Source: Eubacteriales bacterium (lineage in GTDB: Bacteria > Bacillota > Clostridia > Oscillospirales > CAG-382). From it: DNA of 64,000 bases. A program made the position numbers and the translations under genes. Below the pieces are notes generated by a model. The model searched no databases and was not told the DNA's origin. It saw only the letters and a program-made list of their open reading frames with translations. The stretch lies in NCBI GenBank assembly GCA_045533895.1, contig JAZSIT010000045.1, forward strand, positions 2,499 to 66,498, in the 5' to 3' direction. Positions 7,268 through 35,079 of the stretch are shown piece after piece (positions within the stretch are counted from its first letter, which is position 1; every line of letters starts with the position of its first letter).

Positions 7268-7390
7268 ACTTAATTGTGGGCGTGAGTATTTCGGGGTCCC
7301 CGCAAAAGCGTTTTTTCGTGATATGCTTTGTCTGTAGGGGTGTTTCGTGAAACACCTACAGTGTCCAAAAAACCTTTTGTGGGGTGAATA
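7268..7390 (-). repeat. Intergenic mosaic repeat (GGGGTCCCC family), locus A, between ffh and rpsP
   Basis: Contains tcGGGGTCCCCGCAAAAGCGTTTTTTCGTGATAT...TTCGTGAAACACC...CAAAAAACCTTTTGTGGGG. Aligns nearly base-for-base with 31990-32139 except for one extra unit there. Confidence 0.8.
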
Positions 7391-8728
7391 TTAAAATCCA
7401 AAGTTGCCGAAACGCATTTTTTTACTGCCTTTTCCGGTCTGCTGCTTTGCCATCTGCTTCATAAGCTTGTTTACCTGCTCATACTGCTTAAGCAGACGGT
7501 TTACCTCCTCCACAGGTCTGCCGCAGCCTGCGGCTATACGCTTTTTGCGGGAAGAGTTTATAATATCCGGCTTTGCCCTCTCCTTGGGAGTCATGGAAAG
7601 GATTATACCTTCCATACGGGCTATCTGTCTCTCGTCGATCTGTGCATCCTTGAGCTGGGAGGGCTTTATTCCCGGCATCATGCCAAGAAGCTGCTCCATG
7701 CTGCCCATGTTTTTTATCTGTCTGAACTGGTCAAGATAATCGTCCAGTGTGAAGGAAGATTCAAGGAACTTTTTCTCAAGCTCCGCCGCTTTCTTTTCAT
7801 CAAACTGCTGCTCCGCCTTTTCGATAAGGGACAGCACGTCACCCATACCGAGTATACGGGACGCCATTCTGTCAGGATGGAAAGGTTCGATATTATCTAT
7901 CTTTTCGCCTACGCCGATAAACTTAATGGGCTTGCCGGTAACGTGTCTTACCGAAAGTGCCGCACCGCCTCTTGTATCACCATCCAGCTTGGTGAGGATG
8001 ACGCCCGTAATATCCAGCAGATTGTTAAAGCTTTCTGCTACATTGACAGCGTCCTGACCCGTCATGGCATCTACTACCAACAGAATCTCGGTAGGGTTAA
8101 CCTCTTCGCTTATACGCTTTAATTCAGCCATAAGCACTTCGTCTATATGCAAACGACCTGCCGTATCCACAAAGACCATATCGTGGCCGTACTTACGGGC
8201 ATGGACAAGCGCCTCACGTGCGGTTTTTACGGGGTCTTGGGTGCCGCGCTCAAAAACCTGAACGCCTGCCTGCTCGCCCACTATCTTCAACTGGTCGATA
8301 GCGGCGGGACGGTAAATATCGCAGGCTACGAGCAAAGGATTCTTGCCCTGCTTTTTATACATACGGGCAAGCTTTGCGCAGTGGGTGGTCTTACCGCTAC
8401 CCTGAAGACCGCACATAAGCACTACCGTGGGAGGTGCGGAGGATATGGTAAGCTTTGAGTTACTGCCGCCCATTAGAGCAACCAATTCTTCGTTAACTAT
8501 TTTTACTATTTGCTGTGCGGGAACAAGGCTTTGCATAACGTCCGCGCCCACAGCACGCTCGGACACCTTGGCAACGAAATCCTTAACTACCTTGAAGTTT
8601 ACGTCCGCTTCCAACAGCGCAAGCTTGACTTCACGCATACCTGCCTTTACGTCGGCCTCGGTAAGTCTGCCCTTGTTGCGGAACTTCTTCAAAGCACCCG
8701 TCATTTTTTCTGCAAGACTTTGAAACAT
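7391..8728 (-). CDS. ffh: Signal recognition particle protein Ffh
   Basis: Start at MFQSLAEKMTGALKKF with a GGGAG RBS. GLQGSGKTT, DTAGR and TKLDGD GTPase motifs. Met-rich M domain. Confidence 0.96.
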   Translation of the reverse strand: MFQSLAEKMTGALKKFRNKGRLTEADVKAGMREVKLALLEADVNFKVVKDFVAKVSERAVGADVMQSLVPAQQIVKIVNEELVALMGGSNSKLTISSAPPTVVLMCGLQGSGKTTHCAKLARMYKKQGKNPLLVACDIYRPAAIDQLKIVGEQAGVQVFERGTQDPVKTAREALVHARKYGHDMVFVDTAGRLHIDEVLMAELKRISEEVNPTEILLVVDAMTGQDAVNVAESFNNLLDITGVILTKLDGDTRGGAALSVRHVTGKPIKFIGVGEKIDNIEPFHPDRMASRILGMGDVLSLIEKAEQQFDEKKAAELEKKFLESSFTLDDYLDQFRQIKNMGSMEQLLGMMPGIKPSQLKDAQIDERQIARMEGIILSMTPKERAKPDIINSSRKKRIAAGCGRPVEEVNRLLKQYEQVNKLMKQMAKQQTGKGSKKMRFGNFGF

Positions 8729-31912: not shown

Positions 31913-31945
31913 AAAGGCTCTGCGTACGCAGAGCCTTTGGTTTTG
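31913..31945 (+). terminator. Palindromic terminator (left copy)
   Basis: AAAGGCTCTGCGTACGCAGAGCCTTT followed by GGTTTT, 4 nt after the hydrolase stop. 23/26 identical to 35048-35073. Confidence 0.75.
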
Positions 31946-32139
31946 TGGGATATATATTCGGGGTCCCCGCAAATCAAGGATTTGTGGGGTGTATATTTTG
32001 GGTCCCCGCAAAAGTGTTTTTTCGTGATATATGCCTTCTGTAGAGGTGTTTTGGGGTTCCCATAAAATCCGCAGGATTTTAGGGGTGGTTTTTCGTGAAA
32101 CACCCACGGCAACCAAAAAACCTTTTGTGGGGGGTATTT
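31941..32139 (-). repeat. Intergenic mosaic repeat (GGGGTCCCC family), locus B, about 4 units
   Basis: Units: TTCGGGGTCCCCGCAAATCAAGGATTTGTGGGG; TTGGGTCCCCGCAAAAGTGTTTTTTCGTGATAT; GGGGTTCCCATAAAATCCGCAGGATTTTAGGGGTGG (reverse complement of the 47.3-kb unit); TTCGTGAAACACCC...CAAAAAACCTTTTGTGGGGGG. Abuts the ABC exporter stop codon. Confidence 0.85.
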
Positions 32140-33852
32140 TTACTGTGAAATGGTAAACAGAGAATAAAAATATCCTTTTTTGGAAATAAGCTCGTCAAAG
32201 GTACCGATCTCGACAGCAGTCCCGTTTTTTAGTGTGATAATACCGTCATATCGTCTTAACAGCCCTTCATCAAGATCGTGAGTAACAGTGATGCAGGTGA
32301 TGCCGTCAAGCCCCAGAATGGACGAGGACACCTGATATGCCGTTTCCGCATCAAGGGAGGCAGTGGCTTCGTCAACCAAAAGCACACTTGAATTTTTGAG
32401 CAGACTGCGTGCGATTGAAACGCGCTGTTTTTCGCCTCCGGAAAGGAAAACACCGTTTTCACCGCACAAATAATCCTCACCCTTGCTTTCCGCAAGAAGG
32501 GAAAGCCCCGAAAGCCGCATTGCGTCCGATACCTGCTCATCGGAAAAATCACTGAACATAGTAATATTATCACGGAGGGACGCATTGAATACAAAGACGT
32601 TTTGCTGAATAATGCTTTGCATATCGTAAAGATTGCCGCTGTCGATACTGCGAAGCTCGGTATCATCGTAATATATTCCGCCCTCGTAATCGTGGTAGGA
32701 GGACATCAACAAATTAAGTAAAGTAGATTTTCCGCTTCCCGACGCGCCGACGAGAGCGTACTTTTTACCTGCCTCGAAGGTGACGTTAAGATTTTTCAGC
32801 ACTGTTTTTTCCTCATCATAGCCAAAGGTGACGCCGCGCAGAGTTATTCCTCTTTCAAGCGCGGTAACCGAGCAGTCGCCTCCGTCGGCTTTGTTTTCTT
32901 CAAGAGCGGAGGCAATTTTTTCCACAAGTCCACGGGCGGATTTATATTCCGCAAGGCAGGTGGGAATTACCGAAATGGGCTGTATGATATAGTTCATCAT
33001 CTGAACAAAGACCATTACCGTACCCGCAGTAATACCCTTGCCCGAAAGAGCAAGATATGCGCCGAACAAAAACACGCCCAGTTGTGCGACAATTCCCGCA
33101 ATAGCGCCGAACATTTGAACCAAAACAAGTATTTTTTCTTTTTCACCTTTGGCTTTTGCTAAGTTTTTTACCTTTTCGCCAAAGATTCGGCACATCTGCG
33201 TTTCTGCCTTAAAGGATTTTATAACGGTAAATCCGCCGATACAATCCTTTAACGACATGGTATATTCCTCGTTATGGATAGACACACTTTTTTCCGCCTG
33301 CTCTGCCTTACCGCCCGTTATAATTGCCGCCAGAACGGGCAAAAGGGAAAGCAAAACGGCAACGAGAGTGAGAAGCGGGCTGTACCATATCATCATAACA
33401 ACCGCGCCGATGAGAAGAGGCAGACATTCGCCGACAACAAAAATATTTGAAATATACCCCTTCTCTACCGCCGCAATATCGTTGGTCAAGGCTGATACGT
33501 AAAGAGAAGATCTTTCTTTTGAAAAGGCAGATATCTTCTTTTGGGTAAGAATGCGGAATATATATTCTTTGTACTGCGCCATACCCTTTGAAATAAGTGC
33601 GGGTTTTGTATGGTAGATTATAAAATAAATCACCGCCACGGCAAAAACAAGACAAAGGGTGATAACGGCAAGCTCTGTAAGTCCAAGCGCCTTTTCACTG
33701 CCGCTTACAAGGTCTACAAGCTGTTGTAAAAGCCACGCCACCGCGAGATTTGCGGCAACATTTAACAGCGAAGCCAGTGTCATAAGCACAAAAGGCAATG
33801 CATTACCTTTATAAAACTGCTTTACAAAGGGACGAATATTGGTTTGTTTCAT
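32140..33852 (-). CDS. ABC exporter, fused TMD-NBD half-transporter
   Basis: 570 aa with 6 TM N-terminal half. GASGSGKST, LSGGEKQR, VLLVDEATASLD. Confidence 0.92.
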   Translation of the reverse strand: MKQTNIRPFVKQFYKGNALPFVLMTLASLLNVAANLAVAWLLQQLVDLVSGSEKALGLTELAVITLCLVFAVAVIYFIIYHTKPALISKGMAQYKEYIFRILTQKKISAFSKERSSLYVSALTNDIAAVEKGYISNIFVVGECLPLLIGAVVMMIWYSPLLTLVAVLLSLLPVLAAIITGGKAEQAEKSVSIHNEEYTMSLKDCIGGFTVIKSFKAETQMCRIFGEKVKNLAKAKGEKEKILVLVQMFGAIAGIVAQLGVFLFGAYLALSGKGITAGTVMVFVQMMNYIIQPISVIPTCLAEYKSARGLVEKIASALEENKADGGDCSVTALERGITLRGVTFGYDEEKTVLKNLNVTFEAGKKYALVGASGSGKSTLLNLLMSSYHDYEGGIYYDDTELRSIDSGNLYDMQSIIQQNVFVFNASLRDNITMFSDFSDEQVSDAMRLSGLSLLAESKGEDYLCGENGVFLSGGEKQRVSIARSLLKNSSVLLVDEATASLDAETAYQVSSSILGLDGITCITVTHDLDEGLLRRYDGIITLKNGTAVEIGTFDELISKKGYFYSLFTISQ

Positions 33853-34934
33853 GTTCTCTCTCCTTTAATTTCCTGCCACATTTCGTATACCTCGGCAGGG
33901 GCACTTGCTTGCGTAAGGATATTTTCCGCTATCTTCATAACCGATTCACCCAAATCGTCGTACGCAGTGGTTGCTTCGGAGGATACCGACAAAAATTTAA
34001 CGTTATCCAATTTATGGGTAGGTGTATTATCAAAGGCGGATGCAAGCTCATACGCTATGCGAAGGTAGGAGGGGACGGCTTCCCAAATTCCCGCTTTTGC
34101 CGAAAGCTCAGCACAAGCTGCGTAACAGGGGGCTATAATTCTATCCAAATAACAAACTGTGTCCTTTTGAATTTTTAGGTTTTCAAAGGTGTGAGCAAGC
34201 CACAAATAAGCGTCTGCTGCCGCCAAAGGGTCCCCTTTTTTCTCGTAATAATCCCCGCATGCCTTCATTGTACGAAGAGCATTGTTGATAATACCGCTCA
34301 GAGCTTTATCAATATACGCTTCCACCTCTGCAGAATCAAAATTCTCTTTTTCTATACAGGCCAGCGCAATAAGTGAATCGTTTACACCGCATACGTTGTG
34401 TTTTTTAAGTATTTCAAGCCCTTTGTCCTTCTTCCCCAGCGCCATATAGCATTGGGCTTGTGAGTTACGGATGGATGCTTCGCTTATATCCGGATCCCTA
34501 TTCTGCGCCAAAAGAGAAACTGACTTATCCAAAAGCTCGATACTTCGGTACAAATATTTTTCGTTTTTCTCTTCTATACCCGCCACCTCGTATAATTCGC
34601 CTGCGCGGTAAACGACCTGAAAATTGTTGGGATAACGTAGCAGTGCGATTTCCGCTTGTTTGGCGGCACTCTCATATTTTTTATCGCACTGAAGGGCATA
34701 TATCCTTTTTTCTGCCTCTTTTGCACCGCCCACGCTCACCTCATATCCCACAAGCACATCCAGCGATACTTGAAACAGTTCTGCCATACGGACAAGTATA
34801 TCAAGCTCCGGCACGCTTTTACCGTTTTCCCATTTATACGCCGCGCCTACGGTAACACCCAAAGAATCAGCAAGTTTTTCCTGCGTGAACCCTTTTTCTT
34901 TTCTTAAACGCCTTATGTTTTCTGCTAAAACCAC
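33849..34934 (-). CDS. XRE-family HTH regulator with a long TPR-like C-terminal domain (RRNPP-like architecture)
   Basis: GTG start. IRRLRKEKGFTQEKLADSLGVTVGAAYKWENGKSVPELDILVRMAELFQVSLDVLVGY, then about 290 aa of helical-repeat sequence. ATGA-type 4-nt overlap with the ABC exporter. Confidence 0.85.
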   Translation of the reverse strand: MVLAENIRRLRKEKGFTQEKLADSLGVTVGAAYKWENGKSVPELDILVRMAELFQVSLDVLVGYEVSVGGAKEAEKRIYALQCDKKYESAAKQAEIALLRYPNNFQVVYRAGELYEVAGIEEKNEKYLYRSIELLDKSVSLLAQNRDPDISEASIRNSQAQCYMALGKKDKGLEILKKHNVCGVNDSLIALACIEKENFDSAEVEAYIDKALSGIINNALRTMKACGDYYEKKGDPLAAADAYLWLAHTFENLKIQKDTVCYLDRIIAPCYAACAELSAKAGIWEAVPSYLRIAYELASAFDNTPTHKLDNVKFLSVSSEATTAYDDLGESVMKIAENILTQASAPAEVYEMWQEIKGERT

Positions 34935-34958
34935 TATTATCCACCCTTTCTTTGTTTT

Positions 34959-34987
34959 ATTATACCTCCATTAACGCCCTATTTCAA
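34959..34987 (-). promoter_or_regulatory. Promoter of the XRE-TPR/ABC operon
   Basis: The minus strand reads TTGAAA-17-TATAAT. The -35 lies inside one arm of a 10-bp inverted repeat (34982-34991 / 35033-35042). Confidence 0.65.
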
Positions 34988-35045
34988 CCCACCGCCATTA
35001 CAATTTGGCTATTATTTTTTATACCAACAGTATGGGTTGAAACGC

Positions 35046-35079
35046 AAAAAGGCTCTGCGCGTGCAGAGCCTTTGTTTTT
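35046..35079 (-). terminator. Palindromic terminator (right copy) of the P-type ATPase gene
   Basis: AAAGGCTCTGCGCGTGCAGAGCCTTT flanked by A5 and GTTTTTG, 7 nt after the ATPase stop. Confidence 0.8.

Follow-up and report, generated by a model that had tools for sequence, protein, structure and literature searches.

A regulator with the architecture of the RRNPP peptide receptors, encoded directly ahead of an ATP-binding cassette (ABC) exporter, raises the question of whether the two genes form a cell-to-cell signalling circuit or serve some other purpose. We analyzed such a pair on the minus strand of a 64,000-nt stretch of DNA (hereafter, the window) from Eubacteriales bacterium (assembly GCA_045533895.1, contig JAZSIT010000045.1, forward-strand positions 2,499 to 66,498). 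A preliminary description of this DNA had proposed a peptide-signalling module. The coupling of regulator to exporter on which it drew is present, but the analysis reported below revealed neither a peptide gene, nor a peptide-type exporter, nor a diversifying pattern of conservation. Judged by its distribution among genomes, the regulator-ABC pair is a self-contained conserved cassette, the two families being associated in both directions. We give about an even chance to the reading that this cassette is a ligand-activated, positively autoregulated module for export or resistance. Compared genome and metagenome loci carrying relatives of the cassette are labelled with L-numbers (L024, L081, L130, etc.).

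The gene pair and its conservation

The regulator gene comes first and the exporter gene second, and the two share an ATGA overlap:

33849 to 34934, minus strand: regulator gene, 361 aa, with an XRE-type helix-turn-helix (HTH; residues 1-65) and a tetratricopeptide repeat (TPR) superhelix (residues ~69-361), from domain matches and a structure model
32140 to 33852, minus strand: gene for an ABC half-transporter, 570 aa, a fused transmembrane domain (TMD) and nucleotide-binding domain (NBD) of the type IV (ABCB-like) fold, from domains and family scores

The regulator begins at a GTG codon, with GGGTGG 6 nt upstream. Its HTH is matched by HTH_3 at residues 7-61 (E 3.9e-16). The window protein's own TPR matches are weak, and those of its relatives are clear (TPR_19, 4.5e-13; TPR_12, 1.2e-12; found in 50-51 of 55 family members). 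An AlphaFold2 model of the full-length protein, with a predicted local distance difference test score (pLDDT) of 91.9, has a five-helix HTH, a short linker and about 14 helices, and a model of the TPR domain alone reaches a pLDDT of 94.5. Domain matches, models and Foldseek matches to TPR proteins thus agree on an XRE HTH followed by a TPR superhelix, which is the RRNPP layout (5-9 repeats) and the architecture that had been read from the translation beforehand. Invariant residues of the regulator are F105, L141, Q144, N145, L176, N180 and D302. Near the C-terminus, an almost invariant Trp is followed by Glu/Glu, encoded by TGGGAGGA-like codons (33858-33880 in the window, and the equivalent 3' ends elsewhere). 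As these codons also serve as the ribosome-binding site (RBS) of the ABC gene, the conservation of Trp-Glu/Glu may partly be an RNA-level constraint.

The exporter consists of ABC_membrane (PF00664, residues 22-292, 5.8e-26) and ABC_tran (PF00005, residues 352-498, 3.3e-27), and the catalytic motifs are intact in its translation: Walker A GASGSGKST, signature LSGGEKQR, Walker B with its glutamate LLVDEATASLD, and H-loop VTHD. A six-helix ABC_membrane domain followed by an ABC_tran domain with intact motifs identifies a type IV (ABCB-like) half-transporter. Full-length matches in the PDB are ABCB1, MsbA and TM_0288, the latter two at E ~4e-54. In domain order and size, the protein resembles the homodimeric ABCB-type exporters MsbA, Sav1866, BmrA, LmrA and TM287/288; unlike these, it lies far under the curated cut-off of every NCBIfam exporter family and is almost always paired with an HTH-TPR regulator. 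The highest curated scores come from the lipid and polysaccharide exporters HepA and MsbA (MsbA, 235 versus a cut-off of 602), and the peptide-exporter families are similarly remote (TIGR01193, 178.6 versus 523.85; NHLM_micro_ABC1, 229 versus 853).

An exporter of the PptAB or bacteriocin type, as had been suggested, is contradicted by these scores and by the build of the protein. It has no C39 peptidase domain, nor room for one in the 21 residues ahead of the membrane domain, and so is not of the bacteriocin type. It shares the ABC superfamily with the PCAT/AMS bacteriocin exporters and with PptAB, and TPR regulators often answer exported peptides, but the PCAT/AMS exporters carry the C39 domain that is missing here. 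PptAB is made of two separate polypeptides and is not known to be encoded beside its receptors; the window exporter, in contrast, is a single fused polypeptide.

The regulator stop codon TGA (33851-33849) overlaps the ABC start codon ATG (33852-33850), with AAGGAGAG upstream, in agreement with the preliminary description, and this arrangement recurs in the family. We collected relatives of the regulator by a protein search, by a profile search of 1.84 billion representatives, and by a scan of species-representative genomes. The protein search returned 210 relatives, all of ~360-375 aa, and the profile search (E <= 1e-30) defined a family of 663 clusters at 50% identity. So far, the family is found only in gut and rumen Clostridia (Oscillospiraceae, Lachnospiraceae, Christensenellaceae and relatives, from human, livestock and rumen samples). 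The genome scan yielded 80 regulator loci, 75 of them with a full-length regulator, and in 49-53 of these 75 an exporter orthologue (45-65% identical) lies immediately 3' of the regulator. Taking the best RBS-bearing ABC start, regulator stop and ABC start overlap by 4, 8, 11 or 14 nt in 43 of 48 pairs; three additional loci that we looked up have the overlap arrangement as well. The remaining neighbours are unrelated between the 80 loci, and only the regulator-ABC pair is constant.

The association also holds in the other direction. When the ABC profile was used for a reverse scan, a regulator stood directly upstream in 55 of the 73 metagenome loci that had room upstream. The other loci are mostly variants: a small intervening gene (5), the order operator-ABC-regulator (1), decayed regulators (several), or a different XRE protein upstream (few). 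By these comparisons, the exporter is a subfamily of its own that is nearly always paired with an HTH-TPR regulator. Across Clostridia families, the transmembrane domain has a mean identity of 46%, and the TPR domain one of 49% in its N-terminal half. Conservation at this level argues for one common ligand and substrate and not for diversifying pheromone pairs. The window's neighbour genes recur in syntenic relatives whose regulators are 97%, 79% and 61% identical.

Several of the variant loci have features of their own. In one sub-lineage (L122, L130, L133, L138, L140), a conserved 54-56 aa protein is encoded between regulator and ABC gene (e.g., L130:2761-2925). It has the sequence MENEKETVVKKTVKSGITFGSALAMVISYTAWHSIGWAIFHGLLSWAYVLYYIIRY, its own strong RBS and a long hydrophobic stretch, and by eye it is probably membrane-spanning; it has no Pfam match, is missing from the window, and is not a signal pro-peptide. 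The reversed gene order, with operator, ABC gene and regulator in succession, occurs in L128. In L080, the ABC gene is reduced to a 100-aa C-terminal remnant, and the regulators of L098 and L124 are truncated.

The operator and promoter of the regulator gene

The region upstream of the regulator holds the following elements:

35033 to 35042, minus strand: distal arm of an inverted repeat, TTTCAACCCA on the minus strand; perfect in the window, with one base changed in 97% relatives, lost at 79% and 61% identity
35022 to 35032, minus strand: putative operator site 1, TACTGTTGGTA, a palindrome (T/A)ACC-N3-GGT(A/T) with an A-rich tract after it; ~55 of 73 regulator promoters have it at this position
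34990 to 35000, minus strand: putative operator site 2, TAATGGCGGTG, which begins 32 bp downstream of site 1 and stops 2 nt short of the -35 hexamer; spacing and offset conserved
34959 to 34987, minus strand: sigma-A type promoter, TTGAAA, 17 nt, TATAAT; 11 of 12 positions match, kept in L081-L083

The near-consensus promoter had been recognized in the preliminary description, which also proposed the inverted repeat as an autoregulatory operator. The promoter holds up. The repeat itself is real as well, with arms TTTCAACCCA and TGGGTTGAAA (34982-34991 and 35033-35042) that are 100% complementary and separated by 41 nt, but we reject it as the operator: its distal arm is lost in syntenic relatives, and such repeats are not rare in 64 kb. 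A simple calculation predicts that chance alone yields about two perfect 10-bp inverted repeats per 64 kb at spacers of 30-60 nt, and shuffled sequence contained a mean of 3.9 (spacers 3-60 nt). What the upstream regions of the syntenic relatives conserve is the promoter and the stretch between the two repeat arms.

Across loci, the conserved element in this region is a pair of 11-bp palindromes, the second of which recurs as TAC-N5-GT(A/G). One arm of the inverted repeat lies just outside site 1, and the other spans the end of site 2 and the -35 hexamer. Of 52 well-scoring loci, 44 keep the palindromes exactly 32 bp apart, and in 29 of 40 loci site 2 lies 2 nt from the -35 hexamer. After site 2, the order is constant (2 nt, a weak -35, ~17 nt, TATAAT), and the unit begins ~100-106 bp before the start codon. 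Over 40 promoters, a mean of 5.25 of 6 positions match in the -10 hexamer, which carries a TG extension in 25 of them, and a mean of only 2.95 of 6 match in the -35 hexamer.

A position weight matrix built from 40 loci, with the window's lineage left out, scores 38.5 bits at 35036..34986; the runner-up in the window reaches 5.1 and the shuffle maximum is 9.0. No further operator site, such as might mark a regulon or an unlinked peptide gene, stands above background in the 64-kb window. In the 80 genome loci, all hits above 15 bits fall at regulator promoters, including those of regulators that lack an ABC partner. A private, conserved operator at the operon implies autoregulation. Together, the conserved co-operonic pair and a family-wide operator confined to its promoters point to a regulator that is encoded with its pump and acts at the pump's promoter, the binding itself being predicted. 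The geometry would fit activation through contact with RNA polymerase from a site centred near -43, helped by a second site three helical turns upstream. At two loci (L094 and L120), the operator immediately precedes the ABC gene on a contig that has no regulator.

Regulators that lack the ABC gene have the same operator and are coupled to one other gene by an overlap or a gap of a few bases. The partners are as follows:

L052: MFS transporter
L024: M3 oligopeptidase
L027: alpha/beta hydrolase
L035: GrpB protein
L051 and L056: lipoprotein

Having one dedicated effector of export or hydrolysis per regulator resembles one-component resistance or detoxification switches.

Export switch or signalling system

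An adjacent gene for a small secreted pro-peptide belongs to the definition of RRNPP(A) systems used in PMC10075063, and the cassette lacks one. No convincing short open reading frame (ORF) lies in either flank in the window, as had been noted before, the downstream flank consisting of repeat units. We rejected the idea that a peptide gene lies in the window's 230-bp downstream flank, which is made up of dispersed-repeat copies and is largely missing in the 97% relative. In syntenic relatives, the ABC stop codon is 37-88 bp from the next gene (88 bp in the 97% relative, 37 bp in the 61% relative), too short for a peptide gene. Searching both flanks of 49 cassettes for small ORFs (8-80 aa, both strands, RBS required), we found none that is conserved: the search gave 30 scattered candidates on both strands, with no mutual similarity visible by eye, and many flanks are <150 bp. 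More broadly, no conserved peptide gene adjoins the ~100 cassettes examined.

The likeness to RRNPP receptors is mainly one of architecture. Pfam and NCBIfam scans (E <= 0.1-1) of 55 members gave no RRNPP-specific sequence family, only generic TPR and HTH models, and the family profile, compared with PDB sequences, matched HTH domains and designed TPR proteins and no RRNPP protein. With the full-length model, Foldseek places PlcR first (E 3.6e-6), yet with a TM-score of 0.25-0.29; ComR, PrgX and Rgg2 are also listed, at TM-scores of 0.2-0.3. With the TPR domain alone, designed CTPR, LapB, Hop, LGN and KLC come foremost and NprR ranks 33rd. The RRNPP-like label of the preliminary description is backed by the architecture and the best full-length structural match; it has no RRNPP-specific sequence match behind it, and the TPR domain taken alone resembles generic TPR proteins at least as much as RRNPP receptors. 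Of the checks named there, structural comparison of this domain with RRNPP members placed designed and eukaryotic TPR proteins nearer, and a search of orthologous cassettes for a small RBS-bearing ORF found none conserved; both lean away from peptide signalling.

Without a linked pheromone gene, the pair looks more like an inducible switch for export or resistance than like a system for signalling between cells. In the reading that we favour, the HTH-TPR protein would be a cytoplasmic one-component sensor. From the conserved promoter layout, we infer that it binds both 11-bp palindromes, which lie 32 bp or three helical turns apart, probably as two dimers or a tetramer, and that it activates rather than represses. 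The proximal palindrome would abut the -35 position of the regulator's own promoter, and binding of a ligand by the TPR domain would activate transcription of the two-gene operon. Translational coupling would then ensure that the regulator and a homodimeric ABCB-like exporter are made together, and the exporter would remove the inducing compound or a relative of it, most likely a peptide-like or amphipathic toxic molecule common in the gut.

Precedents exist for parts of this scheme. BcrR likewise carries an HTH of the XRE type and requires a pair of inverted repeats ahead of the promoter that it controls; it senses via transmembrane helices, ClnR belongs to the GntR family, and neither is known to have a TPR domain. 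The ATPase and permease of BcrAB and ClnAB are separate subunits, whereas the window exporter is a fused ABCB-like half-transporter. What BcrR-BcrAB of Enterococcus faecalis and clnRAB of C. difficile share with the window pair is a regulator gene directly upstream of, or in an operon with, its ABC transporter, and in both the inducer is the compound handled (PMC3968067, PMC6117091). In the former, the gene of the one-component regulator BcrR immediately precedes the BcrAB operon but is transcribed separately from it, and transporter and regulator compete for the ligand (PMC3968067). In the latter, LL-37 induces an ABC operon that starts with the regulator gene (PMC6117091). By analogy with BcrR and ClnR, the ligand of the window regulator would be the pump substrate or something like it. 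Non-peptide metabolites are reported to activate the RRNPPA receptor ComR (PMC12998947), so TPR receptors of such architecture would not be limited to self-made peptides.

Several points weigh against this reading. The window's own -35 hexamer, TTGAAA, is good (5 of 6), so that basal expression may be high in this lineage, and extended -10 promoters can fire without an activator, so that repression is possible; RstA, which is of the RRNPP type and has no linked peptide gene, represses its own expression (PMC6414698). Palindromes of 11 bp are short for a classical HTH dimer site. The non-ABC partners form a small sample, with one or two loci per kind. The evidence throughout is comparative.

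A further possibility, which we consider rather unlikely, is that the family is a large, gut-restricted offshoot of the pheromone-receptor architecture that no longer signals and has become the private sensor of one ABC exporter's cargo or working state. The cargo might be, e.g., a gut metabolite or an antimicrobial peptide made by the host or a competitor, and the working state might be read through contact between TPR domain and transporter. Either version, if true, would mean a new way of linking sensing to export in commensal Clostridia.

We are doubtful that the pair belongs to a true RRNPP quorum-sensing circuit, in which the pro-peptide is encoded elsewhere or was missed, the ABC protein secretes it, and autoinduction of regulator and exporter gives positive feedback. 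The HTH and TPR architecture, the structural matches to PlcR, ComR, PrgX and Rgg2, and the position of the operator against the -35 hexamer, as in activators of the PlcR, ComR and Rgg type, would all suit it. Like the RRNPP(A) receptors (PlcR, NprR, Rgg, ComR, PrgX, RstA), the window regulator combines an XRE HTH with a TPR superhelix of ~290 aa and is apparently autoregulated via palindromes at its own promoter. Unlike theirs, its output is apparently one co-translated exporter and not a regulon, and its family is conserved across families with no pherotype split. The absence of a conserved RBS-bearing small ORF beside the 49 cassettes, the 37-88 bp gaps in the syntenic relatives, the lack of an RRNPP-specific sequence family, the closeness of the TPR domain to generic TPR proteins, an exporter that lacks the C39 domain and scores far under the peptide-exporter cut-offs, and the non-diversifying conservation of receptor and transmembrane domain all speak against such a circuit. 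The literature nevertheless documents receptors whose peptide gene is unlinked, and it accepts as RRNPP family members some that have no linked peptide gene, such as RstA of C. difficile, which like the window regulator does not adjoin a pro-peptide gene (PMC6414698). Since RstA-type receptors exist, the window regulator may still belong to the RRNPP proteins, and peptide signalling would be conceivable only as an orphan-receptor scenario.

Equally doubtful, in our estimate, is a housekeeping exporter of an endogenous product (a lipid, an envelope precursor or a by-product), with the HTH-TPR protein as an autorepressor relieved when the product builds up. The exporter is highly conserved in many Clostridia, its best curated scores are to HepA and MsbA, though far under the cut-offs, the window promoter is near consensus, and RstA offers a precedent for autorepression (PMC6414698). 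Yet the genomic context differs per lineage and the cassette is decayed or lost in L080, L098 and L124, unlike a core function, and an operator upstream of weak -35 hexamers fits activation better.

Least probable, we think, is that the regulator senses the transporter itself, its TPR domain docking on the exporter (e.g., on the NBD) and being released or activated when the pump works, with coupling fixing the protein ratio: the overlap kept almost everywhere, the near-exclusive two-way association of the families, the protein-binding nature of TPR modules (the top structural matches LGN, KLC and Hop bind protein segments) and the precedents of MalK, an ABC ATPase that restrains the activator MalT, and of BceAB, which signals transport activity to BceS, would favour it, but overlap is common in operons and no proof of contact, the gene order of L128 is reversed, and paralogous regulators with the same operator and overlap are coupled to an M3 peptidase, a hydrolase, GrpB or an MFS pump, so that the regulator works without this ABC protein, which argues against transporter sensing as a general mechanism.

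Cassette ends and significance

The operon is flanked by a P-type ATPase gene upstream and a convergent alpha/beta-hydrolase gene downstream, with the following elements at its ends:

35048 to 35073, minus strand: intrinsic terminator hairpin of the P-type ATPase gene, the upstream cassette boundary; 11-bp stem, then a T tract
31939 to 32139, no strand assigned: dispersed intergenic repeat copies between the ABC stop codon and the terminator, outside the functional module; a second copy at ~7280-7400
31913 to 31938, minus strand: cassette terminator, common to the convergent alpha/beta-hydrolase gene; kept in L081-L083

The two terminators are copies of one 26-nt hairpin, AAAGGCTCTGC-N4-GCAGAGCCTTT, which occurs exactly twice in the 64 kb (31913-31938 and 35048-35073), once per cassette end; both copies are retained in L082 and L083. 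We considered and rejected identical end hairpins as general borders of a mobile cassette, as they are confined to the window's lineage and are not at other loci. The two hairpins may be a trace of how the cassette came into the window locus. A search of plasmid and phage collections found no full-length match. A known defence system was also rejected: a PADLOC scan matched only the HTH and P-loop parts of the two proteins.

The dispersed repeat (~120-150 bp, at 31939-32139 and ~7280-7400) contains GCGGGGACCCC, the hairpin CCCCGCAAATCAAGGATTTGTGGGG and the motif CACGAAAAA, and may be a small mobile or repetitive extragenic palindromic (REP)-like element; a similar motif, GGGGACCCCGA, lies upstream of the regulator in L081. 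The stretch at 31939-32139 is mostly missing from the 97% relative L083, and is by this comparison largely an insertion; it is wholly missing from L082. Anecdotally, the cassette has neighbours of the xenobiotic-response type at two other loci, L165 and L166: both have an AraC-type regulator, to which L165 adds a MATE pump and L166 a GyrI-like protein, a nitroreductase and a MarR regulator.

We found nothing on this gene pair in the literature that could be searched, nor any characterised family member; a regulator family of ~660 clusters across gut Clostridia is thus without a description there. An HTH and TPR protein beside a transporter does not by default warrant the label of quorum sensing. 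The defined operator, two (T/A)ACC-N3-GGT(A/T) sites 32 bp apart, makes the cassette testable, and carriers are in culture (Kineothrix alysoides KNHs209, Parablautia sp. Marseille-Q6255 and Lachnospiraceae bacterium CE91-St56). If the cassette is indeed an inducible switch for export or resistance, it would represent a common and so far unnoticed response of commensals to a shared stress or metabolite.

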